A stretch of 64,000 bases of DNA. Source: an uncultured Anaerolineaceae bacterium (GTDB lineage: Bacteria; Chloroflexota; Anaerolineae; Anaerolineales; DRKV01). Shown here piece by piece: positions 16,828 to 64,000 of this stretch. The notes under the pieces are model-generated. The model saw nothing but the letters and a program-made list of their open reading frames with translations, had not been told where the DNA came from and made no database searches. The position numbers and the translations under genes are program-made. Numbering within the stretch: the stretch's first letter is position 1; every line of letters begins with the position of its first letter. Location of the stretch: NCBI GenBank assembly GCA_964524425.1, contig CAZGDA010000001.1, forward strand, positions 834 to 64,833. Direction: 5' to 3'.

Positions 16828-16832
16828 TTGCG

Positions 16833-18449: not shown

Positions 18450-18606
18450 CGAAGTTAACCGGGACGGATGCATCGCTATCCCCTTGCGGAAAGACGGATT
18501 TTATCAACTCCCCAAAAAACACAGCCTGAACGAATGCGTGGCACTATAATTGCACGGTAGTTCTTAACCGTAAATTCGCGCGGGACGAATTTCGGAAAGG
18601 TGTGTT

Positions 18607-19887
18607 ATGACGCGAAAATCCTGGTTTACTCGCTTGAGTGGATTTCTGATACTGGCGGTGGTCTTATGCGCCTGCACGGGCGGGCAAAGCGCCGCGCCCA
18701 CTCCCCAAACGCAGGCGGGGGTCAAAGCAGACCCGGCGCTGATGACCGAGGCGTTGGTTACGTTTAAAGTGGAGGTGCCGGCTGATTCGCCAGGCGGCGA
18801 GGGCGTCTCCCTCATGCTGTTAGATGAAGTAACCGGTTTGGGCTTAAACCCGCAGCGTTATACAATGCGTCCTAGCGGTTTGACTCATTTTATCGCCAGC
18901 ATTCCCATTCCAATTGGTTCAATCATCCGCTATCGTTTCGTGCGCACGGGGATGTCCCTTGCAGAAGAGCAGACTTCGGACGGCAAACCGGTGCGTTATC
19001 GCCTCTTTCGTGTGGACGGTCCCAGTGTGATAACGGATCTGGTCAGCCGTTGGGCGGACACTCCCCCCAACGCTGCGACAGGTACGGTGCAGGGTGTAAT
19101 CGGCGACTCAGCTAACGGGAAGGGAGTCGGCGGCATTTTGGTCGTTTGCGGCGGGGCACACACGCTGACCGCCAAAGACGGTTCTTTTTCTTTCAGCGGT
19201 TTGGTTGCCGGATTGCACAATCTGGTGGCTTATGCCAGGGATGGGAAATACCAAACTGCCCAACAGGGGGTGTTGGTGGGCGAAAACATGCTTACGGAGG
19301 TTGCGCTTTCTTTGCAACGCGTCCCCACGGTCAGCATTGTTTTCAACGTAACGGTTCCCCCGGGCATGGATGAGACAGCTCGGTTGCGCATAGCCGGAAA
19401 TTTACAACAGCTTGGCAACACCTTCAGCGACCTGCCCGGCGGCGTCAGCGTGCAGGTCTCGCGCATGCCGGAACTGATTCGAGTGGACAACCAACATTAC
19501 GCCATCGCCCTAGACCTGCCTGTTGGCGCAGACGTGCGCTATAAATATACCCTGGGAGACAGCTTCTGGAATGCGGAGCGCGGCGCCAACCAACGCCTGC
19601 GCGTGCGCCAGCTCGTTGTTCCAAGCCAGGGGAAAATGATCCAAGACGAGGTAATCACCTGGAGCGACAGTCAGAAGACTCCCATGAACTTTGAGATTAC
19701 CACTCCAGAGGGCAGCGCAGGCATCACGATTCAATTCTATGCGTTGGGATGGACGCAGCCTATTCCAGCCTGGGGGCAGGATGGAAAGCGCTGGACGTAT
19801 ACCTTGTATAACCCGTTGAATCTGGTCGGCAGCGATTTTAAACACCGCTTCTGCCGCGCTGGGGAATGCGCCGGCGAAGCGCAGTAG
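18607..19887 (+). CDS. Hypothetical lipoprotein with carboxypeptidase-regulatory-like beta-sandwich segment
   Basis: Lipobox AVVLCAC; GTVQGVI...TAKDGSFSFSGLVAGLHNLVAY pattern; otherwise unassigned. Confidence 0.55.
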   Translation: MTRKSWFTRLSGFLILAVVLCACTGGQSAAPTPQTQAGVKADPALMTEALVTFKVEVPADSPGGEGVSLMLLDEVTGLGLNPQRYTMRPSGLTHFIASIPIPIGSIIRYRFVRTGMSLAEEQTSDGKPVRYRLFRVDGPSVITDLVSRWADTPPNAATGTVQGVIGDSANGKGVGGILVVCGGAHTLTAKDGSFSFSGLVAGLHNLVAYARDGKYQTAQQGVLVGENMLTEVALSLQRVPTVSIVFNVTVPPGMDETARLRIAGNLQQLGNTFSDLPGGVSVQVSRMPELIRVDNQHYAIALDLPVGADVRYKYTLGDSFWNAERGANQRLRVRQLVVPSQGKMIQDEVITWSDSQKTPMNFEITTPEGSAGITIQFYALGWTQPIPAWGQDGKRWTYTLYNPLNLVGSDFKHRFCRAGECAGEAQ

Positions 19888-19904
19888 GTTTTCTGTATGA
19901 TAGC

Positions 19905-25776: not shown

Positions 25777-25870
<94 letters not shown>

Positions 25871-49734: not shown

Positions 49735-50913
49735 TTAATCTTCAGCGAAGGCGCGCAGGTCTTCGGCGCGACACCACACCTTGACCAGGTCGCCGTTTTT
49801 AAATGCACTGGTCTCATCTGGGGCAGCCAGCGGTGTGCTGATATTGCGTAATTGCACAGACAGCGTCTCTCCACTGTCAAGTTGCACTTTATAGCGCGTG
49901 TCGGTACCAATGTAAACGGAAGCGCTCACCAACCCGGTGAAGGACAAATGACCGTTGGCAGTTTCGGTAAAAACGTTGTTTACCGGAGTACGCTGCATTT
50001 TGAATTTCTCGGGGCGTATCGTTAGCGTGATTTTTTCCCTGTGCAGCAGCAGCTCTTCCAGATGAGAAATACCGCTGCGTTTTAAATCCACGCGTGTACC
50101 ACCAACCAGAAGGGAAACCTGCCCATTGTGCACTTCACCCAACCTGGCGGCGAGGAAGTTGGTCTCTCCGATGAACTCGGCGACAAAACGCGTGGCTGGG
50201 TTTTCGTAAATGTGGATGGGGGAATCAACTTGCAATACTCTGCCTTGTTCCATCACCGCGATGCGGTCGGACATGGTTAACGCCTCTTCCTGATCGTGCG
50301 TAACGTAAATAAAGGTGATGCCAACTTGAGCTTGAAGCTGTTTGAGTTCTAGCTGCATTTGCTTGCGCAATTTGAGGTCCAGCGCGCCGAGTGGTTCATC
50401 CAGCAACAAAACGGACGGGCGGTTGACCAGGGCGCGCGCCAGCGCCACGCGTTGCTGCTGTCCACCGGAAAGTTGGGACGGTTTGCGCTTTTCCATCCCT
50501 TGCAGGCGCACCAAAGCCAGCGCCTGGCGGGTACGTTCTTCTTTCTCATGGGCGGGGACGTGCTTGATCGTCAAGCCAAAGGCGACGTTTTGCTCCACCG
50601 ATAAATGGGGGAACAAGGCGTAGTTTTGGAACACGGTGTTTACCGGGCGGTGATAGGGCGGCACGTGGTTCATCGCTTTGCCCTGGATGTAGACGACGCC
50701 GCTGCTTGGCTCTTCAAAGCCGGCAATCAGGCGCAAGGTGGTTGTCTTTCCGCAGCCGCTGGGACCCAACAAGGTGAAAAACTCTCCCGCCTTGATGCTG
50801 AGGTTGATCTCTTGTACGGCGGCAACTTCTTCGGCGTAGTTTTGCGCCTGCTCTTTAGCGGTGTGGTTGAACACTTTGCTAACCTGAACGAGTTCAACAG
50901 AGGTATCGCTCAT
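49735..50913 (-). CDS. potA: Spermidine/putrescine-type ABC importer ATPase
   Basis: [42 protein letters not shown]; C-terminal TOBE-like domain; start taken at ATG 50913 (MSDTSV). Confidence 0.8.
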
Positions 50914-51713
50914 TTTCCATCCTTCTTTGCGGCTTGTCCAAGCCGCCGCATCCATTCAGATAATATCATAAGGACAAGAGATATACAAACAATAATCGCA
51001 GCCAGGGTGATGATCAACGGCAGGCGGCTGGGAAAACGTAATTGGGAATACAGATAAATTGGCAGCGTGTTTTGCGTGCCAGTCAGAAAGAAAGACAGGG
51101 CAAACTCATCAAACGAGGTGGTGAAAGAAGACAAAAAAGCTGCCATGATTGCCGGTGCGCTGATGGGCAGGGTAACGCGCATTAACGTAGACCAATAGGT
51201 CGCGCCCAGGTCCATGGCGGCTTCTTCCAGGTTGGCTTCAAAACCTGCCAGGCGTGCGGCTACAATCAGCATTACGTAAGGGATGTTGATGACGACGTGT
51301 CCGGCGCCAACCGTCCACAGGCTGAGTGGAATCCCCGCCTGGTGAAATAACATCAACAGTGCCACACTGAGTACAACGTAAGGGATCACCAGGGGCATGG
51401 ACGCCACGGTGGTAAAAAGGCTACGCCCGGGAAAGCGGAAGCGCGTGATGGCTAAGGCTGCCATCGTGCCGAGCGCAGTGGCGATCAACGAGGAGAATAG
51501 CCCGACGATCAGACTGTTGCGCACGGCTTTGAGCAGTTCATCTGCCCCCAGCAGGGCGCGGTACCATTTCAACGTGAAGCCTTTCAGCGGTAAAACAAGC
51601 GTGGTCGAGTCGTTAAAAGAGAAAACGACCAGCAGCGCGATGGGCAGGTAAAGAAAAAATAACATCAGCAGGAAGTAAAAAAAATGAGGGGAGAACACGC
51701 GCCGCAGAGTCAT
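50910..51713 (-). CDS. potC: Polyamine-type ABC importer permease
   Basis: 267 aa, 6 TM; EAA loop LEEAAMDLGATYWSTLMRVTLP. Confidence 0.75.
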   Translation of the reverse strand: MTLRRVFSPHFFYFLLMLFFLYLPIALLVVFSFNDSTTLVLPLKGFTLKWYRALLGADELLKAVRNSLIVGLFSSLIATALGTMAALAITRFRFPGRSLFTTVASMPLVIPYVVLSVALLMLFHQAGIPLSLWTVGAGHVVINIPYVMLIVAARLAGFEANLEEAAMDLGATYWSTLMRVTLPISAPAIMAAFLSSFTTSFDEFALSFFLTGTQNTLPIYLYSQLRFPSRLPLIITLAAIIVCISLVLMILSEWMRRLGQAAKKDGK

Positions 51714-52601
51714 TTATAACACCGAAGCGTCGCTGATGCGCACGAAACGCGAAAGCATGAAGGTAAAAACCAGCACCGCAGCCAACAGCGCCAGAGCTAA
51801 CACAGCTCCCATAGACCAGTTCAAGGCGCGCAAGAATTGATCCTGGATGAGGTTGCCGTACATCATTCCGTTCACACCTCCCACCATGGAAGGGGCTACC
51901 CATTCTCCCAGGGTGGGGATAAAAACGAAAAAGAAACTGGCTGCCACACCAGTCAGGCTTAAGGGCAAAGTTACGCGCAGGAAGGCTTGCCAGGGTTTAC
52001 AGCCCAGGTCTGCCGCGGCTTCCAAAAGGCGCGGATCAATTCGTTCTAACGCCGAAAAAATGGGCAAGGCAGCAAACGGAAGCCATTCGTATATCAAGGT
52101 GATCAATACCGCTGTGCGGCTGTAAAGGAAAAATGGTACGCCCTGCTCTACCAGACCGCTGGAAATGAGCAGGCTATTGACGACGCCGTTTGACCCCAGG
52201 ATTAGCTTCCAGGATAAAAGACGTAGCAGGTAACTCGTCCAGGCAGGTAAAATTAGCAGCGTGAGAAAAACGATGCGTAGCCTGCCGGCTTTGAAAGCCA
52301 GAAAATAAGCCAGAGGGTAAGCGAGCAAAACCGCCAGCAGGGCGCATTGCAATGCCAACAGCCCGGATTGCCAAAGCAGCCGCTGGTAGGTGGCGTGGCT
52401 GAGGAAATTTCGATAGTGTTCCAGCGTGAACGCCTCGCGTGCTGCTCCAAACGTTCCGGCGCGGAAACTGAACACAACCATCATGCCCAAGGGAATAAGA
52501 TAGAGCACCATCAGCCACAAAGCCGGGGGAGTGATCAGGATAAGTAAGCGGCTGCGTTTTTCCATCTGGTTATTTATGGGGCGGCTTTGACTTCGCTCCA
52601 C
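51714..52601 (-). CDS. potB: Polyamine-type ABC importer permease
   Basis: EAA loop LLEAAADLGCKPWQAFLRVTLP; alternative start ATG 52565 would remove the overlap with the upstream gene. Confidence 0.75.
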   Translation of the reverse strand: MERSQSRPINNQMEKRSRLLILITPPALWLMVLYLIPLGMMVVFSFRAGTFGAAREAFTLEHYRNFLSHATYQRLLWQSGLLALQCALLAVLLAYPLAYFLAFKAGRLRIVFLTLLILPAWTSYLLRLLSWKLILGSNGVVNSLLISSGLVEQGVPFFLYSRTAVLITLIYEWLPFAALPIFSALERIDPRLLEAAADLGCKPWQAFLRVTLPLSLTGVAASFFFVFIPTLGEWVAPSMVGGVNGMMYGNLIQDQFLRALNWSMGAVLALALLAAVLVFTFMLSRFVRISDASVL

Positions 52602-53728
52602 ATATCTGCAAAATGCTGGCGCTGCTGATCGGTGATGGGGCGGTAAAAAATGGTCGCGTCGAGAACGTCCGGTTTCTCCAATTCCAGCAGAGCGGAAGCC
52701 TCTGGGTTAATGAGAGGCACAGCTTTGAGGTTGGCAACGCCGTTGCCGAAGTCATTGGACATGTTTGCCAAAGATTGCGGCGCGATGAGAGCGTCTATAA
52801 AGCGATACGCCAGGTCGGTGTTCTGGCTGGCTGTGGAAATGGCGTACCCGCATACCCAGCCGAGACGCCCTTCTTTGGGCTTGATGTACTCAACAGGTAC
52901 TCCCTCGCGGTACAACGTCAGAAAAGCGTCGTTCCAGGCGTTAGCTGCCAGCCACACGTCACCGGAGGCTACCAACTGGTTGATTTGTGTGTAATCTGAC
53001 CAGTACGTGAGCAACCCCGGTTTGATAGAGACAAGCTTCTGCTGGATTTCTGCGTTCTGCTCGGGGGTTGTGTTCCAGGGATCAAGACCGAGGGCGAGGG
53101 CGGTAATGATGTGATTTTGTTCTCCGCCGTCAAAGAGAGAGACGTGCCCGGCGTATTGGGTATCCCATAAATCTGCCCACGAATCGGGCATCTCTTGCAC
53201 TTTGTCCTTGCGCACCAGGATAGACTCGTAGCCCCAGTCCCAGGGAACAAAATATTGTTTTCCGTTAAATTCGCCCAATTTCTGTAGCTTGGGGTATAAG
53301 TCATTCCAATTCGTCAGGCGGGTGGTGTCAATCTCCTGAACCAATCCGTTATCTACGTAGAGTTTCCAATATTCGTTGCAGGGGTGAATGACGTCGTAGG
53401 CGAAACCGCTCTGTGCCTTGGCGAAGGCTTCGGCGTCTTCGGCGAAGAAGCTGTATTCTACCTGCACGGCAGGATATTCCTGGGTAAACGGTTCGAAATA
53501 ATTGGGTGATTCGTAGCCCGACCAGCCAAAGACGGTCAACGTGCCGGTTTCCTGGGTTGCCGGGGTGTCTGTTGCAGCTGGTGCGGTTGTGGGAGCGGGA
53601 AGCCCTGCCTGGGTTTCAACGGTTGGTGTTAGCGGAGGAAGCGCTGTGGTTTGGCTGGTGCATGCAAACAAAAGGAGCACACCAGTGAGGAAGAGGGAGG
53701 TAAGAGAAACGTGCGTTGTAAGTTTCAT
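52574..53728 (-). CDS. potD: Polyamine-type extracellular solute-binding lipoprotein
   Basis: Lipobox LLLFACTSQ; Pro/Thr linker; PotD/PotF-like body (LTVFGWSGYE..., WDWGY..). Confidence 0.7.
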   Translation of the reverse strand: MKLTTHVSLTSLFLTGVLLLFACTSQTTALPPLTPTVETQAGLPAPTTAPAATDTPATQETGTLTVFGWSGYESPNYFEPFTQEYPAVQVEYSFFAEDAEAFAKAQSGFAYDVIHPCNEYWKLYVDNGLVQEIDTTRLTNWNDLYPKLQKLGEFNGKQYFVPWDWGYESILVRKDKVQEMPDSWADLWDTQYAGHVSLFDGGEQNHIITALALGLDPWNTTPEQNAEIQQKLVSIKPGLLTYWSDYTQINQLVASGDVWLAANAWNDAFLTLYREGVPVEYIKPKEGRLGWVCGYAISTASQNTDLAYRFIDALIAPQSLANMSNDFGNGVANLKAVPLINPEASALLELEKPDVLDATIFYRPITDQQRQHFADMWSEVKAAP

Positions 53729-53833: not shown

Positions 53834-54493
53834 CTACGTAGCAGCCACAGGTCTACGGCTGGAAGTGCCCTTTTTGCCGCTGACTATTTTGATCCCATAG
53901 ACAGTTTTCTTGCCACTGACGATTTTGATGTCGTAGTCTGTCTTGCGCCCAGCCATTTTACTGAAGCTCTTGCGCTTGCTGTAAAAGGCGTCAATGCGGC
54001 GTTGAATGTAAGGCATGAAATAGCCGTAATAACGGCGTTGTAATTCCGGGCGCATCCAGTCGTTGCCGGTTACGCGTCCACGGCAGGTCGGCGCGCCGCA
54101 ATTACATTCAAACTCATCGTAGGGCGTTGTATCGCTCATAGCGTAATCGAAACAAATTTCTTCGTCGGGAAAGATATCGCGCATGGCAACCAGACAGACC
54201 TGCCCGCTAAGCCCGGCATTAGGATTGCATGAATGGTTTACGTAATCGCCTGTGGTCAATCCACCGGGGGGCATGAGATACATTCCCTCTTCGATCTGGA
54301 CGCCGTGAGTAATCGTCTCAATAGATAGCTCACTCAAGGCACTCTCAGGTACCATTATGCCTCCCCAGGCGCATAACAACTCATTTTTCTTAACGGCTTC
54401 GCGTGCAAACACACCAAAGCCACCCTTTTCTGGGCATGGGCGCAGTTCCAGCTTAGGGGAAGTGTAATGAGGGGATGAAAGGTCAATGGTCAT
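53834..54493 (-). CDS. SET-domain protein (putative lysine methyltransferase) with basic repeat tail
   Basis: GFGVFA..., NHSCNPNAG, FDYAM and post-SET CNCGAPTCRG motifs; Lys/Arg-rich C-terminus. Confidence 0.8.
   Translation of the reverse strand: MTIDLSSPHYTSPKLELRPCPEKGGFGVFAREAVKKNELLCAWGGIMVPESALSELSIETITHGVQIEEGMYLMPPGGLTTGDYVNHSCNPNAGLSGQVCLVAMRDIFPDEEICFDYAMSDTTPYDEFECNCGAPTCRGRVTGNDWMRPELQRRYYGYFMPYIQRRIDAFYSKRKSFSKMAGRKTDYDIKIVSGKKTVYGIKIVSGKKGTSSRRPVAAT
53870..53941 (-). repeat. Tandem 36-nt (12-aa) duplication inside the SET gene tail
   Basis: 53870-53905 versus 53906-53941: 27/36 nt identical by my count; encodes TDYDIKIVSGKK / TVYGIKIVSGKK. Confidence 0.8.
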
Positions 54494-54997
54494 TCTTTAT
54501 CTCCTTTAGAACCAAAAATAATATTAACCACCCCACCCGAAAGTGACGTGAACAACCAACACTGGAAAAACCAGTTAAAAACAAACAGGATGTACCTGGT
54601 AAATCGGAAGCGAACCCGCTTTATCTTGTATATCCTGCCTATCCCGTGCCGGTCTAAGTTGTTAAGGCTGCTAACCTGTCCAAATAGCCTGAATGATTAT
54701 ACGTGGAAATTGTATAATATGTGTATTAATATATGTGTAAACGTGTATTAATATCGGTGAGATGTGTATTGTTTTATACTTTTAATTAAACAAAATATTA
54801 ACTTTCTACCTCTTTACTTTCGTGAACTATGGATTATAATTAATTCCGTAAATAATATAAATAGGCTGATTGGTCTCAAATGTAAGAGAAACCTGGTTTA
54901 TTGTTGTGTTTATCCATCATTGCGGATATATCAAGCCGGGTTTTTTATTTTAAAAAATTTTTAAAACGAAAAGGAGAGTGCACTAAATAGGAGAAAA
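54494..54997. promoter_or_regulatory. Very AT-rich divergent intergenic region (SET <-> kamA-like)
   Basis: 16/60 G+C at 54721-54780 and 13/60 at 54781-54840. TGTATAAT at 54711-54718 (+). GTGTATTAATAT direct repeat at 54721-54732 and 54743-54754. Hairpin AAACCTGG / CCGGGTTT plus a T-run at 54889-54950. AAGGAGAG SD before ATG 54998. Confidence 0.5.
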
Positions 54998-56326
54998 ATG
55001 TCAAATATACCGTTTCCTTCCAAACGTGCTTCAATTTACGCTGACGTTCCCGATGATAAATGGAACGACTGGAAATGGCAACTTAGTCATCGTTTAAATA
55101 CCATTGAAGAATTTGAGCAGATATTTCCTCTAACTGCAGAGGAACGCCGTGCTCTTTCTATGCCGGGTGTTTTTCGAGTGGATGTAACGCCGTACTTTGC
55201 GTCTCTGATTGATCCGCTTGCCCCGAATGATCCCATTCGTAAACAGGTGATTCCCACCACTGCGGAATTCTTGCTTTTTGATGGGATGATGGAAGACTCT
55301 TTGGCGGAAGACCGACATTCTCCTGTGCCTGGATTGGTGCATCGTTATCCTGATCGGGTATTAATGTTGCTTACCACGCAATGCGCTTCCTATTGCCGCT
55401 ATTGCACGCGCTCGCGCCTGGTGGGTAACCCTCTGGCTACTTTTACGCGCCGGGATTTTGACAAGCAATTTGATTATCTGGAACGCTCCCCGCAAGTGCG
55501 GGATGTGTTGCTTTCCGGTGGAGACCCGCTTACCCTGGCGCCGGCAATGCTGGATTACGTTTTAGACCGCCTCAGGCGTATCCCCCACATCGAAGTCATC
55601 CGGATTGGCAGCCGCGTGCCGGTTTTTCTGCCAATGCGTGTTAATGCCGACCTTATGGATATGCTTGAAAAGTATCACCCCTTGTGGATGAACATCCATG
55701 TAAATCATCCGAATGAAATAACAACCGAACTGGCGCAAGCCTGTGATAAACTGACTCGCGCCGGCATCCCGCTGGGAAATCAGTCCGTGCTTCTGGCGGG
55801 CGTGAATGACAATGTGCACGTTCAGCGCGAACTGGTGCATAAATTAGTACGCATGCGTGTGCGCCCGTACTACCTCTACCAGTGTGATCTGGTGGCAGGA
55901 GCGGGGCATTTTCGCACCTCAATTGCCAAAGGAATTGAAATCATGGAAGGGCTGCGCGGGCATACTTCTGGTTTTGCCGTGCCGCAATACGTGGTGGATG
56001 CCCCCGGCGGCGGCGGTAAGATTCCGCTCGCTCCAAACTACCTGCTCAGCATGGCGGATCACAAGGTCGTCTTGCGCAACTTTGAGGGATACATCACCAC
56101 GTATCAGGAGCCAACCGACTACGTTGGGTCTTCCGCGGCTGCAGCCCCAGCCCAATACACAGACGCCGACCAGGAAGGCATTCTGGCGCTGCTGGAAGGG
56201 GAGCATTTAGCCATCAAACCAGAAGGGTTCGATCAGGTGCACGACCGGGCGCGTACTGCCGCTGCAATGCCTGTCATGCGCCGGAAGGCGCTGGAACCCA
56301 TGTCCCGCAGGGGAGTGGGCACGTAG
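54998..56326 (+). CDS. kamA: Lysine 2,3-aminomutase family (KamA/AblA-type) radical SAM / PLP enzyme
   Basis: WNDWKWQL N-terminus; CASYCRYCTRS radical SAM cluster; VVDAPGGGGKIP PLP-lysine motif; 442 aa. Confidence 0.8.
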   Translation: MSNIPFPSKRASIYADVPDDKWNDWKWQLSHRLNTIEEFEQIFPLTAEERRALSMPGVFRVDVTPYFASLIDPLAPNDPIRKQVIPTTAEFLLFDGMMEDSLAEDRHSPVPGLVHRYPDRVLMLLTTQCASYCRYCTRSRLVGNPLATFTRRDFDKQFDYLERSPQVRDVLLSGGDPLTLAPAMLDYVLDRLRRIPHIEVIRIGSRVPVFLPMRVNADLMDMLEKYHPLWMNIHVNHPNEITTELAQACDKLTRAGIPLGNQSVLLAGVNDNVHVQRELVHKLVRMRVRPYYLYQCDLVAGAGHFRTSIAKGIEIMEGLRGHTSGFAVPQYVVDAPGGGGKIPLAPNYLLSMADHKVVLRNFEGYITTYQEPTDYVGSSAAAAPAQYTDADQEGILALLEGEHLAIKPEGFDQVHDRARTAAAMPVMRRKALEPMSRRGVGT

Positions 56327-56414: not shown

Positions 56415-58304
56415 TTATTTCTTAATGTGTAAACGGTTGGCGCGCCAGATTTGCAAGGGCAATTGGCAATCCAAAGAGAGCATCCCCGGAACGTCTCTGT
56501 AATGGCTATAATTTTGCTGGATGAGATCCAGTATTTCCAGGTTGGTTGTGGGTGGAGCCTGAGCATCTCCGATGAAATTTGGCAGAGTGCCGCCGCGGTT
56601 AAATAAGGACCAGTCGCGACGGATGAGGATGTAATCAAAGTATTCTTTGCGCAGCTTGCGCACGTAATCGGAATACCAGGGGGTTGCCGGGCTGATTTGC
56701 GTGCTGGCTGTGCGCATAGATTTTACGGAAAGCGGAGCGCCCAGCGCATATTGCAGCCCTGAGGATGGGTCTATCAGCCAGATTTTTTTCTCCTCGATGT
56801 TCGGAACCAGGGAATGAATAATACGGTATGTGCTGCGCACTTTTTGAATGTCATTTTTGGAATAATATGCCTCTAGGTCTGAACGAAAAACGAGATTTTC
56901 CGTTTCGTATTCTTTATAAACGACCTGAGACGTGTAATATTGTACCGAATTGTAGATTAAAACTGCGCAAACGAGGAGGAAAACAAGGTTGATGAACTGA
57001 GATGCAAGCACTGCCCAGCGTATGTTGACATACCGGATTTTCAAGGGATGTGAGCTGGTCTTGTTTGTGGATACGAATAAGATGCGATGCAGGGGGATTT
57101 GCAGCGGCTTGTCTGTCAAGTTGAGAGACCACACACCGGAAACGACGAGGGCTGTTATCGTCAGTGGCAAGTCTAATACGCCGTGCAAAATGTGTTGGTG
57201 AAAGCTTATGTTTGCCAGGGCGAAGAAGGAGAACACGATAAGAATGACCTCTCGTTCCGTAAGCGCAGTGAGGCGAAATGGACGGGAGAAAATTTTCTTG
57301 AGGATATTCCAGGCGCAAACGCTCACCAACCCCAATTTGAGGATAAAATCTATCAGGTAACTTTTATAGACGCCCAAATTCCAGCTTTCCAAGATAGTGG
57401 CTGGGTCAATTTCGGGAAGTAAAGAGTGAAAAAACCAGCCGGTGTAATTCCAACCACTTATCAACCGAGAACTGGACTGTACCAGGTACTGGTATGGGAA
57501 TAGGAAATAAAAATTTTGTCGGTTCATTGCCTGTTGGGGACTCACCAGAACCCCCCAGGTGAGTTCAAGGATGAATAGAGAGAACGCCAACGCAAGAAGC
57601 CCATCCAGGAGGAGACGGGATAAACGCATTCTCAAAGGCAAAGGCTGGCTGAACATCGCGAGACTATAATAGAGAGCGCTGGCAGCGAGCATGACGTACC
57701 CGTTGCTTGGTCTGGCTAGGATGCAAATACAGGCGAGAATTACGCTGCTGAAGAATTTAGCGCGCGGGGATAATTTCTGGGACGCCAGGATAAGCATAAA
57801 TAACATCCACGAAAGGACGTAAACCGGATTTCCTAGCGACCAGCCTTGATGAATGTCTTGAAAGGTGTAGTGGAAAAAGACAGCCAGGCTCAGCGCGGTG
57901 AGCGTTCGCGTTTGATGCGGGTGAAGGTAAATGAATATGATTGCACAGAACAAAATGAAAGACGCCCAGACGCCAATGGAAAAATAAAGCTGTACGGCTT
58001 GGAACGCGGTCAGGTGGAATAGAACCTGGAGGGCTAAACTAAACCAGTACCCTAAAAGCCCGTAAGAGGGGATAAAATCAACGTAGATTTTTTGACCTTT
58101 GGACATCAAGTCCACCGAGAAGGCTTCTGCGCCAAAATCGTTTAAGAGCGAACTGGCGCTGTCGGAGTACGTATAGCAAGCCATTCCCAGGAGTATACCA
58201 AACACGAGGAACATCAAGATGAAGTAGGGGTGCCGAATGGCGAAGTGTAATGAGGTTGAGCTTGTTTTCTTTGCCGCGGCTTTGATGGAACTTACTAATG
58301 TCAT
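56415..58304 (-). CDS. Large polytopic membrane protein (at least 12 predicted TM segments) with ~170-aa C-terminal soluble domain; unassigned
   Basis: 629-aa ORF; GGAG SD 8 nt before the ATG; hydrophobic segments throughout the first ~450 aa; overall shape recalls GT-C glycosyltransferases or O-antigen polymerase/ligase, but I see no diagnostic motif. Confidence 0.6.
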   Translation of the reverse strand: MTLVSSIKAAAKKTSSTSLHFAIRHPYFILMFLVFGILLGMACYTYSDSASSLLNDFGAEAFSVDLMSKGQKIYVDFIPSYGLLGYWFSLALQVLFHLTAFQAVQLYFSIGVWASFILFCAIIFIYLHPHQTRTLTALSLAVFFHYTFQDIHQGWSLGNPVYVLSWMLFMLILASQKLSPRAKFFSSVILACICILARPSNGYVMLAASALYYSLAMFSQPLPLRMRLSRLLLDGLLALAFSLFILELTWGVLVSPQQAMNRQNFYFLFPYQYLVQSSSRLISGWNYTGWFFHSLLPEIDPATILESWNLGVYKSYLIDFILKLGLVSVCAWNILKKIFSRPFRLTALTEREVILIVFSFFALANISFHQHILHGVLDLPLTITALVVSGVWSLNLTDKPLQIPLHRILFVSTNKTSSHPLKIRYVNIRWAVLASQFINLVFLLVCAVLIYNSVQYYTSQVVYKEYETENLVFRSDLEAYYSKNDIQKVRSTYRIIHSLVPNIEEKKIWLIDPSSGLQYALGAPLSVKSMRTASTQISPATPWYSDYVRKLRKEYFDYILIRRDWSLFNRGGTLPNFIGDAQAPPTTNLEILDLIQQNYSHYRDVPGMLSLDCQLPLQIWRANRLHIKK

Positions 58305-58324
58305 GTTTAACTCCAGCGGGTATA

Positions 58325-58332
58325 ATTATACA
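58325..58332 (-). promoter_or_regulatory. Extended -10 element for the 629-aa membrane protein gene
   Basis: Minus-strand TGTATAAT 20 nt upstream of ATG 58304. Confidence 0.4.
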
Positions 58333-58381
58333 ATAAAAACAATCGAACATCGGATAAAAACCTTTTCAATTCTTTGAAGTA

Positions 58382-58390
58382 TGGTAAAAT
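58382..58390 (+). promoter_or_regulatory. Extended -10 element for the DegT-led operon
   Basis: TGgTAAAAT about 170 nt upstream of ATG 58562; an AACGTCgcgGACGTT palindrome lies at 58419-58433 in the leader. Confidence 0.35.
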
Positions 58391-58561
58391 ACCGCAGGAT
58401 TAGAAAGGTCAGGGCGGAAACGTCGCGGACGTTGACGCGGCTGAACTTGCTTTGTTTTGTTTTATCCAGTATGTTAGTGTCGCAAATGAAAGAATGCTTG
58501 TGCGTTGTGAAGAATGTCGCTTGACAGGCAAGAACGCGCAAAAGGAGATAATGCGTAACTT

Positions 58562-59785
58562 ATGGAAGAAACGAAAACCGCAAAAGAAATGCTTGCCCAC
58601 TATGGTGGTCCCAGGGTCAGGGTAAGCCCTATGCCGCCGCGTTCCTCTTTTGGAGCGGGCGAGTTTGCAGCGGTGCAACGTGTGTATGAGCGCTGCAAAC
58701 AAACCGGGACAGATTTTGGATACCAGGATTTTTTTGAAAAGGAATACACGGATGCGTTTGTGAAATCGCTGGGCGTGGATGGATATGCAGACGCAGTTGC
58801 CACCGGTTCGGCGGCGCTGTACGTGGGAATTGCCGCCTTGCGTCTTCCTGCCGGCTCGCACGTGTTGGTGTCTTCCATCACAGACCCTGGGACGATTAAC
58901 TCCATTATCCTAAACAACCTCGTTCCCGTCGTGGTGGATACCATGCCGGGGTCTTACAACATCGGCGCCGAACAGGTGGAAAGCCGCCTAACCGACAAGA
59001 CCAAGGCAGTCCTGGTGGTGCACGCAGCTGGCAAACCCGCGCCCGTGGATGAAATTGTTAAGATCACCAAACGGCTTGGCATTTCCCTCATCGAAGATTG
59101 TTCACAATCTCACGGCGCCACTATTGGCGGAAAGAAAGTGGGGACGATCGGTGAAATTGCCATGTTTTCAACCATGTACCGCAAAGCACACACGACCGGT
59201 GGCTGTGGCGGGGTTATCTTTACACAGGACAAAGACTTGTATCACATGGTGCGGGCATTTGCCGATCGTGGGAAACCATTCTGGAGCAGCGGGTTTAATG
59301 ACCGCGACCCCAGGCAATTTCTCTTCCCGGCGTTAAACTTTAACCTGGATGAATTGTCCTGTGCAATTGGTTCTGCCAGCCTTGCGCGGTTGGAAGACAC
59401 GCGCGTTAAACGAGTGCGTTTTCTGCAAAAGATGTGCGACGCGTTGGAAGAAAATTCCCATATATGCAAACTGATGCCCGTCAGTGAAACGGATTCGCCG
59501 TTCTTCCAGCCTGTGTTTGTGGATGTGGAGCGGATTACGTGTTCCAAGCTGGAATTCGCCGGAGCAGTGTTTAACGAAGGCATTCCAATTAACGCCAACT
59601 ACCAATACGTTGTGTGTGAATGGCAGTTTGTCAAACCATATTTATCCGATGCGTTTGACTGCCCGAACGCAAGGGACGTGCGCGATCGCTCGTTTAATCT
59701 CTTGCTCAATGAAAATTATGGAGATCAAGAAGTGTTGGATATCACCAACGCTATTTTGAAAGTGGAAAGGTATTTCGGAAAATGA
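58562..59785 (+). CDS. DegT/DnrJ/EryC1/StrS-family PLP aminotransferase (second copy, divergent from 4925-6109)
   Basis: 407 aa; ATGSAALYVG, SLIEDCSQSHGA and FSTMYRKAHTTGGCGGVIF (candidate PLP lysine). Confidence 0.75.
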   Translation: MEETKTAKEMLAHYGGPRVRVSPMPPRSSFGAGEFAAVQRVYERCKQTGTDFGYQDFFEKEYTDAFVKSLGVDGYADAVATGSAALYVGIAALRLPAGSHVLVSSITDPGTINSIILNNLVPVVVDTMPGSYNIGAEQVESRLTDKTKAVLVVHAAGKPAPVDEIVKITKRLGISLIEDCSQSHGATIGGKKVGTIGEIAMFSTMYRKAHTTGGCGGVIFTQDKDLYHMVRAFADRGKPFWSSGFNDRDPRQFLFPALNFNLDELSCAIGSASLARLEDTRVKRVRFLQKMCDALEENSHICKLMPVSETDSPFFQPVFVDVERITCSKLEFAGAVFNEGIPINANYQYVVCEWQFVKPYLSDAFDCPNARDVRDRSFNLLLNENYGDQEVLDITNAILKVERYFGK

Positions 59786-60504
59786 ATAATCAACACGACG
59801 ACGAAATCTTCTTCGGCAGTCAATCCTCTGATTTTGCGCGAAAAGTATACCGTGAGATTCCCAGTCAGGAATTTGAACGTGGGTTTGAGTTAGGTCCTTT
59901 TAATACGCGGGAGATTTTTAACGATCCCAAACGATTGGGATTTTTATTTGCCCGCTACAAATTCGTCTCAAAGATGCTGCAGGGCTGTGAGCGCGCTTTG
60001 GAAATTGGCTGTCAGGAAGGGCTGGGGTCAATGGTGATTGCCAAGGTGGTTGGTTTCTTGCTCGCCACCGATTTTTACAAACCCCACATTGAGAGTTGTG
60101 TGGCGCGCTTGAGCGGCGCTGTGCCAAATATCGAGTTTCGCGGGCACGATATTTTAGACGGACCTGTCGCCGGGAAATTTGACGCCGCCCTTTCCATTGA
60201 CGTCATTGAACACATTGACCCGAATCAAGAATACCTTTACATGCGTAATATTGCTACCAGTTTGACTGAGCATGGTATTTTTGTCGTGGGCACCCCGTCT
60301 CTCGAATCGCAGCAATACGCTTCGGTACATTCAAAAGCTGGACACATCAATTGCAAAACCGGGGAATCGCTGCGCGCGCTCTGCAAGCAATATTATCACA
60401 ACGTTTTTGTGTTTGGTATGAATGATGAAATGCTGCACACCGGCTTTCTGCCGATGGCGCATTACCTGTTTGCTTTGTGTGTGGAACCGAAAAAAGGCGT
60501 ATAA
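59782..60504 (+). CDS. Class I SAM-dependent methyltransferase
   Basis: ALEIGCQEGLGS motif I and SIDVIEHI; 4-nt overlap with the upstream gene. Confidence 0.7.
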   Translation: MNNQHDDEIFFGSQSSDFARKVYREIPSQEFERGFELGPFNTREIFNDPKRLGFLFARYKFVSKMLQGCERALEIGCQEGLGSMVIAKVVGFLLATDFYKPHIESCVARLSGAVPNIEFRGHDILDGPVAGKFDAALSIDVIEHIDPNQEYLYMRNIATSLTEHGIFVVGTPSLESQQYASVHSKAGHINCKTGESLRALCKQYYHNVFVFGMNDEMLHTGFLPMAHYLFALCVEPKKGV

Positions 60505-60511
60505 TTCTTCC

Positions 60512-61084
60512 ATGACGAGCGAAAAAATCACGTTTCAGATTCCAGTTACGGAAGCAGACGCCAGATTGATTTACAATTGGCGAAATGATCCGCGTACCAC
60601 TGTGTATTGGGCAGACACCCATCGTATTGTGTGGGATGAGCATTTGCAGTGGTTTGCAAATATCACAAAAAAGGCGGACGAGCGGCTTTTATTTGCCCTG
60701 GAAGAAGGCGAAAAGGTCGGTGTTGTGCGGCTCTCCCGTTCATATATAGAAAGTGAGACGGTGGCGGAAGTGGGTATTTATTTAGACCCCGACCTGCACG
60801 GGCGTGGCTTGGGTCCGCGCATCCTTTCCTCCCTGACGGGATGGTGCACCAGCCAGGATGATTTCCATCTAGACTGGTTGGTGGCGCGGGTTGATAAGCG
60901 AAACATGCCTTCACGGCGCAGTTTTGAAAAAGCCGCTTATGCTTTAACGCCCCTGGAAATCCAGGGCGCGATGAGTGTTGTCTCTCTCCTGGAACTGGCT
61001 GTTGCATATCGAAAGGGAGAGCTTTCTCCAACTGAATGGGTTGACAGCCAAGCAACGCACGTTGTTTTCATCCTGGATTTGTAG
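60512..61084 (+). CDS. GNAT-family N-acetyltransferase (PseH/RimL-like size)
   Basis: ATG 60512 (MTSEKITFQ); NWRNDP...; IYLDPDLHGRGLGPRIL motif A. Confidence 0.7.
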   Translation: MTSEKITFQIPVTEADARLIYNWRNDPRTTVYWADTHRIVWDEHLQWFANITKKADERLLFALEEGEKVGVVRLSRSYIESETVAEVGIYLDPDLHGRGLGPRILSSLTGWCTSQDDFHLDWLVARVDKRNMPSRRSFEKAAYALTPLEIQGAMSVVSLLELAVAYRKGELSPTEWVDSQATHVVFILDL

Positions 61085-61128
61085 ATGAGAGCATATCCCC
61101 AACTAAAAAATGGAATTAGAAAATCAAA

Positions 61129-62109
61129 ATGAAATTTGAACTCCCTGAATATCCGAAGAGATTGTTGATTGGTTTACAGGAAGGATACTGTAACCTCAAG
61201 TGTCCGATGTGTTTTGTACACGGCAGCAGTGATTCTGAGGCAATTAAAGCCACGCGCGGGCAGATGAGCCTGGAAGACGCAGTAAAGATCTTCGACGAAG
61301 TGGCAGAGGCGAAACCGACCATAAGCCCGTTCACGTGGTACGAACCCTTTTTATTTAAAAACTCAATGGATTACATTCGTGCGATCAAAGCGCGCGGTTT
61401 GCCGATAAATATCAACACGAACGGCTTGAACGTCAATGAGGAATTGGCGCAGTTTATCGTCGAATCCGGCATCGAATCGGTGTTTGTCAGTATAGATGCA
61501 ACAACTCCCGAAACGTTACTGAAGATGCGCGGCATCACTGCCCTTGATAAAATCCACGCGGCAGTGTTTCGTCTGCTCGATGCGCGGGGTGAGCTGGACC
61601 ACCCGCGCATTGGGGTCGCTTTTGTGAACGACCCGAAAAGCACGCACGAAAAGGACGAATTCATCCGTTTCTGGTTGCAGCACGTGGATAGTGTGCACAT
61701 CATTGAACTCTACAATGAAAATCGTTCCGTGGATGCGGCAAAAATTCCTGAAGAGCGCATTCCGTGTGGAGCGCTGTACGATACGATGGTGATTAGCAAT
61801 CGCGGCAACGTGCCGATTTGCTGCCTGGATGCCTTCAATGAAACCAGCATGGGAAACGTGTTGGAAAGCGGCGTCAAGAACGTCTGGCTTTCTGAAGAAT
61901 TGCAAACCATTCGTTATTATCACGAGACCAACCAATATGATAAAGTACCGTTTTGTCTGAACTGCCAGGTTTGGGCAGATTATTTAGTAACAGAGACGGT
62001 GGAAAATGGCGTAATGATCCGCACTTCTCCGATGAATACGTATTACAACCGGCTGGATCGCATGTACACCTGGAAGAGCGGCGGAAAAGCAGTGGTGGAA
62101 AAGAAATAG
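61129..62109 (+). CDS. Radical SAM protein with partial SPASM/twitch-like C-terminal Cys motif
   Basis: CNLKCPMC (CxxxCxxC); C-terminal C-x12-G-x4-C (CGALYDTMVISNRGNVPIC) followed by C and a distal CLNC pair. Confidence 0.75.
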   Translation: MKFELPEYPKRLLIGLQEGYCNLKCPMCFVHGSSDSEAIKATRGQMSLEDAVKIFDEVAEAKPTISPFTWYEPFLFKNSMDYIRAIKARGLPININTNGLNVNEELAQFIVESGIESVFVSIDATTPETLLKMRGITALDKIHAAVFRLLDARGELDHPRIGVAFVNDPKSTHEKDEFIRFWLQHVDSVHIIELYNENRSVDAAKIPEERIPCGALYDTMVISNRGNVPICCLDAFNETSMGNVLESGVKNVWLSEELQTIRYYHETNQYDKVPFCLNCQVWADYLVTETVENGVMIRTSPMNTYYNRLDRMYTWKSGGKAVVEKK

Positions 62110-62115
62110 GCTGCT

Positions 62116-63315
62116 ATGGACGATAAAACACAGCAGAAGATGTTTGAATATTATCAGGAACAAACCGTGCTGCCGACGTATGGCGCGTTTAAATCCCAGA
62201 TGGATTTGGCGATCTACGAAAAGCAGCGCCGGGAAATCTTTTTAGATAAGCTTTACCTTCCCGTACAGGTATTTAAAGGCGCCCATCTGATTGAATTTGG
62301 TCCCGATTCCGGCGAAAACTCGCTCGTCTTCGCACAATGGGGGGCAGATTGTACTTTGGTTGAACCAAACCCCAAGGCGCACCCAGTTATATTAAACTAC
62401 TTCCGTTCCTATGGACTTAAAGAACGTCTGACGGAATTGATGAACGTGGACCTGGCTGGGTTTGCCGGGACGGTGGACGGCAAACAAAAATACGACATCA
62501 TTGACGCCGAAAATTTCATTTATACCGTCAAACCACATGAATTGTGGATGGCCCTGTTTGCCCGCATACTCAAACCAGACGGATTCCTGGTCATTTTCTA
62601 CGCTGAGGCGTACGGGTATTTTATGGAATTTTTTCGCAGGGCGCTGTACCTGCGTCTGAAAGAGATGACAGGTATGAGCAGCCTGGCTTGTGCCAGGGCG
62701 CTGTTCACTGCCAAATGGGATTCTATTCCACACAAGCGCTCGTTTGAATCGTGGGTGATGGACTCGCTCGAAAGCCCGTTTGTGCGCTTGGACTACGTAT
62801 ATAAAGCCGGCTGGTTGTGTGAGGAAATGTACAGGCACGGCTTTAATCTTTATTCCTCACACCCGCACTATAAGGACGCCTTGTGTATAGATTGGTTTAA
62901 GAAAAAACTGCCGGATGAGGAGGCTTTACGTTCCCACCAGGCGTTCATAGCCCGCAACAGCCTCAGCTATTTGCTTGGAAAGAAATTATTCTTGCGCTCC
63001 AACGATGGCGTGGATGAGGCATTGTGGCGTTTGCTTACGTTGACGGATGCGATGATTGACGGGTACCTGCCCGAGCAGCTTCAGGAATGCGTGGAGATTT
63101 TGACGCGCATGCAGCATACGGTTCAATCGGATGCCGTGATTGCCGACCAGGCAGAAAAAGCACGGGCAGTAGCAATGCTGCACAGCCATACGCGAATCCT
63201 CCAATTGCTCCTCGCCGGAAACGCACAAGAAATTCTGGAATTTTGTAATCAGGACGAGGCATTTATCCAAAGTTGGGGAAATCCTGTGCATCTGATTGTA
63301 TTTACATTGCGATAA
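62116..63315 (+). CDS. SAM-dependent methyltransferase domain protein with ~200-aa unassigned C-terminal extension
   Basis: HLIEFGPDSGENSL motif I-like, ILKPDGFLVIF; 399 aa. Confidence 0.55.
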   Translation: MDDKTQQKMFEYYQEQTVLPTYGAFKSQMDLAIYEKQRREIFLDKLYLPVQVFKGAHLIEFGPDSGENSLVFAQWGADCTLVEPNPKAHPVILNYFRSYGLKERLTELMNVDLAGFAGTVDGKQKYDIIDAENFIYTVKPHELWMALFARILKPDGFLVIFYAEAYGYFMEFFRRALYLRLKEMTGMSSLACARALFTAKWDSIPHKRSFESWVMDSLESPFVRLDYVYKAGWLCEEMYRHGFNLYSSHPHYKDALCIDWFKKKLPDEEALRSHQAFIARNSLSYLLGKKLFLRSNDGVDEALWRLLTLTDAMIDGYLPEQLQECVEILTRMQHTVQSDAVIADQAEKARAVAMLHSHTRILQLLLAGNAQEILEFCNQDEAFIQSWGNPVHLIVFTLR

Positions 63316-63330
63316 AACTTTGAGGAAAGT

Positions 63331-64000
63331 ATGCGACAATTGACTATGGTAATTCCGGCGTTAAATGAGGAGGAGAACATCGCTCCTACTGTGGAAGAGA
63401 TCCTTCCCATCGCCAGAAAAACGCTGGATTCGTTTGAAATGATTCTCATCAACGATGGAAGCGACGATAAAACCGGTGAGATTATGGAAGGATTTGGGCG
63501 TGATAACCCTGAAATCCGCGTGATTCACCACCCGCAACGCAAGGGTTTTGGAGCCTCGTATCTGGAAGGCATCTCTCTGGCGAAAATGGAATACGTCTCC
63601 TCTATCCCTGGGGATCACGTGGTGGATAAAATTACCTGGGAAGCATATTTTAGCGCGATCGGACAGGCGGATTTGGTGGTTGGCGTGCGCACCAACCAGA
63701 CTAACGCACGCCCTTTTTACCGTGTGGCGCTCTCGCGGCTGTATACCCACGGGATCAACATTATTTTCGGAATGCATTACACGGATATCAATGGGCTTAC
63801 GGTATACCCAACCGAAATGTTACGTGCCATGGGGCTACGTTCCACAGGCTACACCCTCCAGCTTGAGGCGTTGATCCCCCTCACGCGACGAAAAATGACG
63901 TATGTTGAAGTACCCTGTGTCATGTTGCCTTCCGAGGATAAGAGCAGCCATTCGCTCAAGTTTGCTACCTTGCAGGAGGTATTGAGGACGGTCTGGCGAT
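63331..64000 (+). CDS. GT2-family glycosyltransferase (DPM1/ArnC-like), 3'-truncated by the window edge
   Basis: Not in the ORF track because no stop is reached. My translation from ATG 63331 is MRQLTMVIPALNEEENI...MILINDGSDDKTGEIM...GFGASYLEG...GDH, the GT-A/GT2 signature. The frame stays open to 64000. Confidence 0.75.
   Translation, partial: MRQLTMVIPALNEEENIAPTVEEILPIARKTLDSFEMILINDGSDDKTGEIMEGFGRDNPEIRVIHHPQRKGFGASYLEGISLAKMEYVSSIPGDHVVDKITWEAYFSAIGQADLVVGVRTNQTNARPFYRVALSRLYTHGINIIFGMHYTDINGLTVYPTEMLRAMGLRSTGYTLQLEALIPLTRRKMTYVEVPCVMLPSEDKSSHSLKFATLQEVLRTVWR

Follow-up and report, generated by a model that had tools for sequence, protein, structure and literature searches.

A radical SAM/aminotransferase cassette at a putative lipid-carrier-dependent glycosylation locus of an uncultured Anaerolineaceae bacterium

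Background

In the Arn pathway (ArnB-ArnC-ArnA-ArnD-ArnT-ArnE/F), by which 4-amino-4-deoxy-L-arabinose (L-Ara4N) is placed on lipid A, a DegT-family aminotransferase is combined with a family 2 glycosyltransferase (GT2), small membrane proteins and a GT-C-type transferase that carries an external C-terminal domain, and the same logic is seen in the Gtr system (GtrA/B/C), in LgmA/B/C of Bordetella, in FlmF/FlmK of Francisella and in PpgS/Rv3632/Rv3779 of mycobacteria. The partnership of a GT2 enzyme with a small membrane protein recurs in DPM1/DPM2-3, PpgS/Rv3632, GtrB/GtrA and ArnC/ArnE-F. Here we describe a locus at the end of a 64,000-nucleotide stretch of DNA from an uncultured Anaerolineaceae bacterium (assembly GCA_964524425.1, contig CAZGDA010000001.1, positions 834 to 64,833; this entire stretch is hereinafter called the window), in which an operon for an aminotransferase, an N-acetyltransferase, a radical S-adenosylmethionine (SAM) enzyme, two methyltransferases and a GT2 enzyme diverges from the gene for a 629-amino acid (aa) membrane protein. 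The locus appears to be a variant of the Arn/Gtr/Lgm/PpgS logic that lacks orthologues of the proteins defining those systems and adds a radical SAM step.

A second set of described systems is relevant to the sugar itself. In the NAD-dependent modules WbpB/WbpE/WbpD (UDP-ManNAc3NAcA), GnnA/GnnB and PseB/PseC/PseH (pseudaminic acid), a hydroxyl is converted successively to a ketone, an amine and an acetamido group, with a DegT-family aminotransferase and an N-acetyltransferase. In the butirosin pathway, the product of the radical SAM enzyme BtrN is passed to a DegT-type aminotransferase; BtrN belongs to the so-called twitch enzymes, among which those acting on sugars include the epimerases HygY and NeoN. 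The reaction catalyzed by BtrN is a two-electron alcohol oxidation that converts 2-deoxy-scyllo-inosamine to an amino-inosose, and the auxiliary cluster of this twitch enzyme has four cysteine ligands (PMC9012708).

The reading that we prefer, and to which we assign a probability of roughly 45%, is that the locus encodes a lipid-carrier-dependent surface glycosylation system in which the sugar is tailored by a conserved radical-SAM/aminotransferase cassette; the product of the operon is most likely an N-acetylated, methylated amino sugar. An earlier note on this DNA, made from the sequence alone, had read the operon as devoted to amino-sugar or glycan tailoring, and this interpretation gains support both from the family membership of the genes and from the co-conservation of the aminotransferase, methyltransferase, acetyltransferase and radical SAM enzyme.

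The operon and its limits

The coordinates that the earlier note gave for seven open reading frames (ORFs) were reproduced exactly in our ORF map, and the families it named for the six co-directional genes were each recovered with Pfam (Table 1). The packing is as tight as claimed, with a 4-nt overlap between the aminotransferase and methyltransferase genes followed by gaps of 7, 44, 6 and 15 nt, and the locus is a genuine operon. The divergent spacer presumably houses the promoters of both transcription units; three sigma-70-like matches, on the plus strand at 58298-58390, are consensus matches only.

The window ends within the GT2 gene. Beyond it, the locus was read from three metagenome contigs of the Joint Genome Institute (JGI) that carry an identical locus and end at about 64834-64940 (L001, L002 and L003). 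These provided the end of the GT2 gene, the stop codon being placed from L001, and the genes for two small membrane proteins, for neither of which does Pfam have a family. All three contigs stop within about 100 nt of each other, inside the second of these genes; because three independent assemblies break there, repeat or strain-variable sequence is suggested to lie directly downstream.

As the standard for assignment to a named pathway we used the curated cut-offs of the NCBIfam equivalog models, and not one gene of the operon attains such a cut-off. The best scores, in bits and compared to the cut-off, are 124 against 423.5 for PseC, 125 against 423 for RfbH, 108 against 631 for ArnB, 63.7 against 93.1 for PseH, and 45 against 325 for AglJ. 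Therefore this is not a textbook pathway, and the earlier view that the operon cannot be tied to any named pathway stands, as every NCBIfam match is far below its curated cut-off. Neither of the outcomes that the note had named as refuting it was observed: what was read of the locus does not amount to a standard cluster with characterized close homologues for its genes, and the core genes are co-conserved, as described below. The absence from the locus of a nucleotidyltransferase, a 4,6-dehydratase and an epimerase, already remarked upon for the part then visible, holds for the entire interval of 53.8-64.9 kb, where none of the three was found. The sole short-chain dehydrogenase/reductase (SDR) of the window is located at 11189-12184.

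Table 1. Features of the locus, with window coordinates
Feature	Position	Strand	Basis
GT-C-like 629-aa polytopic membrane protein	56415-58304	-	ORF map; Foldseek on model
Divergent intergenic region, 257 nt, 41% G+C	58305-58561	strandless	presumed promoters of both transcription units
DegT/DnrJ/EryC1 pyridoxal phosphate (PLP) aminotransferase, 407 aa	58562-59785	+	PF01041, 1.8e-55, 189.1 bits
Class I SAM methyltransferase, 240 aa	59782-60504	+	Methyltransf_25/11/31/23
GNAT N-acetyltransferase, PseH-like, 190 aa	60512-61084	+	Acetyltransf_3, 6.7e-17
Radical SAM enzyme with twitch C-terminal domain, 326 aa	61129-62109	+	PF04055 and PF13186
Methyltransf_23 protein, 399 aa, C-terminal extension of about 150 aa	62116-63315	+	PF13489, 1.2e-12, residues 52-245
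Short GT2, 228 aa, stop at about 64017, past the window	63331-64000 (window part)	+	PF00535, 5e-22
187-aa membrane protein	about 64087-64650, outside the window, after the GT2 gene		identical metagenome contigs
Second small membrane protein, 4-nt overlap with the 187-aa gene	outside the window		identical metagenome contigs

Conservation of the cassette

A scan of species-representative genomes found orthologues of the radical SAM enzyme, with 40-55% identity, in Microcoleus, Kamptonema, Planctomycetes, Actinomycetota, Verrucomicrobiota (including an Akkermansia metagenome-assembled genome, MAG), Nitrospirales, Pseudodesulfovibrio, a Coxiella-like MAG, Pseudoalteromonas and many Alphaproteobacteria from soil. 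The neighbourhoods of these genes were explored by tblastn over 55 orthologous loci, including many short contigs, and by Pfam annotation of five loci. An orthologue of the DegT aminotransferase (43-59% identity at near-full coverage) lies no farther than 10 kb from the radical SAM gene in approximately 33 of the 55 loci, from at least 8 phyla, and often directly adjoins it. Orthologues of the 240-aa methyltransferase (42-64%) were detected by tblastn in about 13 loci and adjoin the aminotransferase gene in Microcoleus, in an Actinomycetota MAG and in others. The aminotransferase, 240-aa methyltransferase and radical SAM genes show co-conservation across phyla. The same tblastn search over 55 loci never found the GNAT, GT2, 629-aa or 187-aa proteins, nor the lysine aminomutase and SET-domain protein encoded upstream of the locus, and matched the 399-aa methyltransferase in Microcoleus only.

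The recurring gene order is DegT aminotransferase, methyltransferase of about 235 aa, AAC(3)-type N-acetyltransferase (PF02522) and twitch radical SAM enzyme, with the radical SAM gene coming first in some loci and a Methyltransf_23 protein of about 370-400 aa usually next. An order almost the same as that in the window was observed in the Actinomycetota MAG, namely, aminotransferase, methyltransferase, radical SAM enzyme, acetyltransferase, long methyltransferase and short GT2; this GT2, of 247 aa, shows weak homology to the one in the window over the full length (22% identity, E 5e-16).

De novo clustering of the ORFs from 57 loci yielded the following companion families: SDR epimerases/dehydratases (36 loci, about 2 per locus), DegT aminotransferases (34 loci), AAC(3)-like acetyltransferases (32), beta and alpha subunits resembling pyruvate dehydrogenase E1 (PDH-E1) and transketolase (28 and 19, respectively), a 220-aa methyltransferase (19), FkbM methyltransferases (19), NUDIX proteins (16), GmhA-like isomerases (15) and HldE-like kinase/adenylyltransferases (15). 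Cassette loci may further contain UDP-sugar dehydrogenases, carbamoyltransferases and ABC-2 exporters, and the companion families likewise score below the NCBIfam equivalog cut-offs. The usual setting of the cassette is a large, uncharacterized, heptose-linked polysaccharide cluster of the O-antigen type. None of the usual companions, that is, SDR, PDH-E1-like pair, NUDIX, GmhA, HldE and AAC(3), was found in the window near the operon. By its gene content, the window locus appears to be the minimal form, in which the GNAT enzyme apparently replaces the unrelated AAC(3)-like one. Because an acetyltransferase is nearly always present, yet its superfamily differs, in what looks like non-orthologous displacement, N-acetylation of the product seems to be required.

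In the HldE-like enzymes of the related loci (for instance, L006 657-2186 and L088 15675-17207), the N-terminal domain is the adenylyltransferase and the C-terminal one the kinase, the reverse of the order in Escherichia coli HldE; these enzymes score far below the equivalog cut-off. They are accompanied by the PDH-E1 alpha/beta-like pairs, NUDIX proteins and a B12-dependent radical SAM enzyme, a set that, judging by its composition, points to an uncharacterized pathway for a branched or higher-carbon sugar.

The radical SAM enzyme

The radical SAM protein has 392 detectable homologues. In an alignment of 36 family members, C21, C25 and C28 (the CX3CX2C motif) are invariant, and only five more cysteines are so, all of them C-terminal: C213, C231, C232, C276 and C279. 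The protein matches the SPASM model PF13186 with 43 bits; yet, with five cysteines after the core domain, it does not contain the seven-cysteine SPASM motif, in agreement with the partial motif noticed earlier, and all NCBIfam maturase models stay far below their cut-offs. With only five C-terminal cysteines, the two auxiliary clusters that a SPASM domain carries could not both be ligated; therefore, we classify the protein as a twitch enzyme with a single auxiliary cluster.

When the family profile was compared with all sequences in the PDB, BtrN came first (1.6e-14). The match is carried by the C-terminal twitch domain (5e-9), the contribution of the core domain being weak, and in the profile alignment C213 (of a PC motif), one of the C231/C232 pair, and C276 and C279 (CxxC) each align with a cysteine of BtrN. 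Thus, a single four-cysteine auxiliary [4Fe-4S] site within a truncated SPASM fold is predicted, and the enzyme appears to be BtrN-like. Compared to BtrN, however, it is about 75 residues longer, and the similarity is significant in the twitch domain only. A role as a maturase of RiPPs (peptides made on the ribosome and modified after translation) was rejected given that the enzyme is of the twitch and not of the SPASM type and that its neighbours are sugar-tailoring rather than peptide-maturation genes; a precursor peptide was not searched for. A full-text literature search found no characterized member of this radical SAM family or of the cassette.

The pairing with a DegT aminotransferase and the absence of any other oxidoreductase in the operon suggest that the radical SAM enzyme might be a ketone-forming dehydrogenase that supplies the aminotransferase with its substrate. 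By virtue of its likeness to BtrN, it would offer an alternative route to the keto intermediate that otherwise would be due from the missing 4,6-dehydratase.

The aminotransferase, acetyltransferase and methyltransferases

The aminotransferase is a member of the DegT family, scoring 189.1 bits over residues 60-398 compared to a gathering cut-off of 19.8 for PF01041, and the Schiff-base lysine K208 and the E178-D179 pair are invariant in all 32 of the cluster-associated relatives compared. Over 262 residues it shares 31% identity with ArnB of E. coli, and in the BLAST alignment K208 falls one residue off the ArnB lysine. Its closest relatives in the PDB, with similar scores, are an unnamed DegT enzyme, scyllo-inositol transaminase, perosamine synthases and 2-deoxy-scyllo-inosose transaminases; ArnB, too, scores about like the cyclitol transaminases. 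For the GNAT protein, PseH is both the best match in the PDB and the nearest characterized relative.

In the 399-aa methyltransferase, the long extension that had been noted is confirmed, the C-terminal part being unmatched in Pfam. No NCBIfam match and no relative in the PDB was found for this protein. It is 29% identical (E 4e-38) to a Microcoleus protein that occupies the same slot after the radical SAM gene; other loci fill this slot with an unrelated long Methyltransf_23 protein.

The GT2 enzyme and the divergent membrane protein

The window GT2 contains no transmembrane (TM) segment, so that the C-terminal TM helices of ArnC and GtrB are absent. Its only full-length matches are AglJ (45 bits), PpgS (29 bits, cut-off 370) and the dolichol-phosphate mannose synthase of Pyrococcus (5mlz, 2.5e-6), whereas other GT2 proteins, ArnC included, match its N-terminal 100 residues only. 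From this pattern of similarity, the protein is a probable short polyprenyl-phosphate sugar synthase. A link to arsenosugars or hopanoids was rejected, the GT2 matches in question being weak and sub-threshold.

The 629-aa membrane protein had been described as unassignable. This remains correct for the family databases: Pfam and NCBIfam have no match for it, Pfam has none for its homologues either, and a profile search of the PDB with the family found nothing. An exhaustive phmmer search of 1.84 billion representatives detected only five relatives, with 25-31% identity, which are encoded on short contigs directly after Methyltransf_23 genes and next to genes for GT2 enzymes and asparagine-synthase-like (amidotransferase) proteins, a setting that likewise has to do with glycans. 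At the level of structure, by contrast, a tentative assignment can be made. An AlphaFold (AF2) model built on the six-sequence alignment has a mean predicted local distance difference test score (pLDDT) of 56 and a predicted TM-score (pTM) of 0.56, compared to a pLDDT of 38 for the single-sequence model. The six best PDB matches of the pLDDT 56 model in Foldseek are all GT-C enzymes, in the order ArnT (twice), DPY19, AftA, DPY19 and AftA, with TM-scores of 0.36-0.45 and E values of 0.011-0.1; STT3, AftD and EmbB follow at lower ranks, and transporters of the MFS and other families have TM-scores of about 0.1.

The topology, as deduced from hydropathy and the positive-inside rule only, consists of about 11 TM helices and a C-terminal domain of about 180 aa. 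The N-terminus, with 4 K/R and 0 D/E, would be inside, and the first outer loop (46-82) is acidic, with 5 D/E; D55, within the motif Q/N-D-[IF]-[GH]-x-[DE], is kept in all five full-length sequences. The domain comprising residues 451-629 would be outside because a K/R-rich loop (398-431) precedes the last TM helix. From the model and this topology, we tentatively consider the protein a glycosyltransferase of the GT-C fold. Because all sequence-level tests of membership failed, it is not placed in any named GT-C family and our label is kept to 'GT-C-like'.

Other features of the window

The earlier note took some AT-rich lines as a hint of an acquired block. The deficit is real but small, the G+C content being 48.6% in the operon block and 53.3% in positions 1-54500; G+C at third codon positions is 52-59% in the block compared to 63-69% in the G+C-richest genes, and some other genes of the window are equally low. 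No tRNA, structured RNA, long repeat or mobile-element gene was found at the block borders. The suggestion of acquisition is weak, 4-5 points of G+C being all that speaks for it, and since neither a tRNA nor a repeat nor a mobility gene goes with this small deficit, we rejected horizontal acquisition.

Upstream of the locus, a lysine 2,3-aminomutase gene (54998-56326, plus strand; 524.5 bits, with the AblA cut-off at 525.4) is convergent to the 629-aa gene. It is preceded by a spacer of 504 nt (54494-54997) with 33% G+C, many promoter-like matches and a 20-nt AT palindrome, and is not adjoined by an AblB-type acetyltransferase; the GNAT enzyme of the operon was considered for this role and rejected, being PseH-like and too short. 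A 219-aa protein with a SET domain (53834-54493, minus strand; PF00856, 6.6e-13), a domain that is uncommon in bacteria, has its gene flanked by that of the aminomutase on one side and by those of a PotABCD-like ABC importer (49735-53728) on the other. Neither the aminomutase nor the SET gene was retained as a part of the system, since neither accompanies the cassette in any of the 55 loci searched and since the direction of the aminomutase gene is opposed to that of the 629-aa gene.

Further glycan genes are dispersed over the window. At 11189-12639 (plus strand), the SDR epimerase/dehydratase gene overlaps by 4 nt a gene for a GtrA-family flippase-like protein; the SDR could be a source of keto-sugar for the operon, which lies at a distance of 45 kb. 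A DegT aminotransferase of the canonical kind, the second in the window, is encoded at 4925-6109 (minus strand; PF01041, 4e-104) and a GT4 glycosyltransferase at 197-1363 (plus strand). Tandem tRNA-Ser genes with TGA and GCT anticodons lie 17 nt apart at 2230-2427, and a 226-aa ORF at 2236-2916 is probably spurious because it overlaps them; a third tRNA-Ser gene (GGA) is on the minus strand at 25778-25870. The region 15481-21632 encodes an acyl-CoA:6-aminopenicillanic acid acyltransferase-like protein and a PAS-GGDEF diguanylate cyclase, as well as a 426-aa protein without a Pfam match (18607-19887) and a dynamin-family GTPase (19905-21632). The host lineage appears to be poorly sampled, being known only from a few metagenomes: none of 13 window proteins found in a look-up has a named relative with 90% identity or more, a 14th was absent from the collection, and the scan for radical SAM orthologues did not recover this genome among the species representatives.

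Comparison with described systems

The Arn pathway shares with the window locus a DegT-family aminotransferase, a GT2 enzyme that in both would load the sugar onto polyprenyl phosphate, and small membrane proteins; the place of its GT-C transferase would be taken by the large polytopic 629-aa protein, for which ArnT ranks first among the structural matches. The differences are considerable: the locus has neither an ArnA-type dehydrogenase/decarboxylase/formyltransferase nor an ArnD-type deformylase; in addition to the low score against ArnB, that against ArnC is 23.6 bits with a cut-off of 529, and the ArnT model is silent or far below its cut-off; beyond the Arn components, the operon encodes a GNAT enzyme, two methyltransferases and a radical SAM enzyme; and the family of the 629-aa protein has five known relatives.

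The likeness to butirosin biosynthesis lies in the pairing of a twitch radical SAM enzyme with a DegT-family aminotransferase (BtrN with BtrS/BtrR) and in the aligned cysteines. However, the locus contains no 2-deoxy-scyllo-inosose synthase, and its context consists of glycosyltransferases and membrane proteins and is not that of an aminoglycoside cluster. The substrate probably is an activated sugar rather than a free cyclitol. The Wbp, Gnn and Pse modules are matched in the presence of a DegT aminotransferase together with an N-acetyltransferase, but the oxidation in the window system would be radical-SAM-dependent instead of NAD-dependent, and the two methyltransferases are extra. For pseudaminic acid in particular, the PseC and PseH models are below cut-off, and PseB, PseG, PseI and PseF are not encoded in the locus.

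A further close relative is itself uncharacterized, namely, the AAC(3) cassette of Microcoleus, Actinomycetota, Verrucomicrobiota, Alphaproteobacteria, Nitrospirales and Pseudoalteromonas, which has orthologous aminotransferase (51-59% identity), methyltransferase (up to 64%) and radical SAM (40-60%) genes. The window version differs in having a GNAT enzyme, in lacking the heptose-nucleotide genes, SDRs, PDH-E1-like pair, NUDIX protein and B12-radical SAM enzyme, and in that it alone is coupled to a GT-C-like protein.

Proposed scheme and alternatives

Gene content and order, the family of each enzyme, the conserved catalytic lysine and cysteines and the co-conservation of the core are seen in the sequences themselves. 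What the radical SAM enzyme does chemically, how the reactions follow each other, the use of a lipid carrier, a GT-C activity and the identities of the sugar and the acceptor are inferred along the following lines. Acting as BtrN does with a cyclitol, the twitch radical SAM enzyme would convert a secondary hydroxyl of an activated sugar into a ketone; the DegT enzyme would transaminate that ketone, the GNAT enzyme would acetylate the new amine, and the two methyltransferases would add methyl groups. The short GT2 would then transfer the finished sugar, or a precursor, to polyprenyl phosphate at the inner face of the membrane, where the downstream small membrane proteins might anchor the GT2, flip the lipid-linked sugar, or both. 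Finally, the divergent GT-C-like protein would transfer the sugar to an extracytoplasmic acceptor, conceivably a lipid, a polysaccharide or a protein. A broader formulation, which we regard as possible but rather doubtful, is that the radical SAM enzyme and its co-evolving DegT partner constitute a widespread, uncharacterized route to amino sugars that does without NAD (an unactivated sugar hydroxyl would be oxidized by radical chemistry, and transamination, N-acetylation and methylation would follow) and that here feeds a lipid-carrier pathway ending in a GT-C family not recognized before, with the five relatives mentioned above.

Several observations weigh against the scheme that we prefer. 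No gene for sugar activation is visible up to about 64.9 kb; of the source contig, which has 79,817 nt, as much as about 15.8 kb may lie beyond. Four of the proteins, namely, the GNAT enzyme, the GT2 and the 629-aa and 187-aa proteins, lack co-conservation with the cassette. The GT-C assignment comes from a model with a pLDDT of 56 and Foldseek E values no better than 0.011; it is not seconded by a Pfam match, and an hhalign comparison with E. coli ArnT was not significant (probability 0.1%). Furthermore, most of the related loci pair the cassette with at least two SDRs, one of which resembles dTDP-glucose-4,6-dehydratase; therefore, the radical SAM enzyme need not supply the ketone there. The extra invariant cysteine of the CC pair could serve as a hydrogen-atom donor in the manner of epimerases.

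Two alternatives deserve serious consideration. The first sees in the locus the border of a conventional polysaccharide cluster (for an O-antigen, an exopolysaccharide or an S-layer glycan) that extends past the window, with the cassette making an unusual residue of the repeat unit, an ordinary chain-building GT2 and a 629-aa protein that is polymerase- or ligase-like instead of being a GT-C transferase with a lipid-linked monosaccharide as its donor. Elsewhere, the cassette indeed resides in large clusters with ABC-2 transporters, FkbM proteins, several GT2 and GT4 enzymes, UDP-sugar dehydrogenases and heptose-nucleotide genes, the homologues of the 629-aa protein adjoin GT2, methyltransferase and asparagine-synthase-like genes, and the window locus is readable only to about 64.9 kb. 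Nevertheless, we deem this explanation unlikely: the usual companions are not near the operon, the upstream genes (ABC importer, SET-domain protein and lysine aminomutase) are unrelated, the GT2 is of the short dolichol-phosphate-mannose-synthase type, and Foldseek retrieves GT-C enzymes rather than Wzy or O-antigen ligase folds.

The second, which strikes us as no less improbable, retains the system as proposed but makes the radical SAM protein an epimerase, a dehydratase or another tailoring enzyme that works ahead of the transamination or after it, the ketone for the aminotransferase being provided by an unlinked NAD-dependent enzyme. The 4,6-dehydratase-like SDRs of most related loci could feed the aminotransferase, the window itself encodes an SDR and a second DegT protein elsewhere, the twitch enzymes acting on carbohydrates include epimerases, and an invariant extra cysteine stands beside the cluster ligand (C231/C232). 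On the opposite side of the balance, the operon has no other redox enzyme, the aminotransferase is the tightest cross-phylum partner of the radical SAM enzyme, much as BtrN is paired with the DegT-type enzyme of butirosin synthesis, and the nearest solved relative, BtrN, is a dehydrogenase.

That the cassette acts on a cyclitol or an aminoglycoside-like small molecule (a secondary metabolite or a compatible solute) and not on a surface sugar can be considered highly improbable in spite of the kinship with BtrN, the cyclitol transaminases among the top PDB relatives of the DegT enzyme, and the AAC(3)-type acetyltransferases and, in one case, an APH-family kinase in related loci, because neither the window nor the five Pfam-annotated related loci encode a 2-deoxy-scyllo-inosose synthase or sugar-phosphate cyclase, the last genes of the operon are for a GT2 and membrane proteins and a GT-C-like protein is encoded opposite it, glycosyltransferases and polysaccharide exporters abound in related loci, and perosamine synthase and ArnB score about like the cyclitol transaminases.

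Implications

The locus in the window has no dehydratase, heptose genes or B12 enzyme and is the most stripped-down form of the cassette encountered here; therefore, it offers a good minimal system in which to learn the role of the cassette. Should the interpretation that we favour hold, the GT-C glycosyltransferases would gain, with the 629-aa protein, a very rare family. To our knowledge, ketone formation by radical SAM enzymes so far has been documented only in pathways for aminoglycoside antibiotics. If the radical SAM enzyme of the cassette does make the keto intermediate, this would be new chemistry for the primary synthesis of cell-surface glycans, and it would account for the presence of the cassette in many phyla, from cyanobacteria, Verrucomicrobiota and Nitrospirales to soil Alphaproteobacteria and Pseudoalteromonas.

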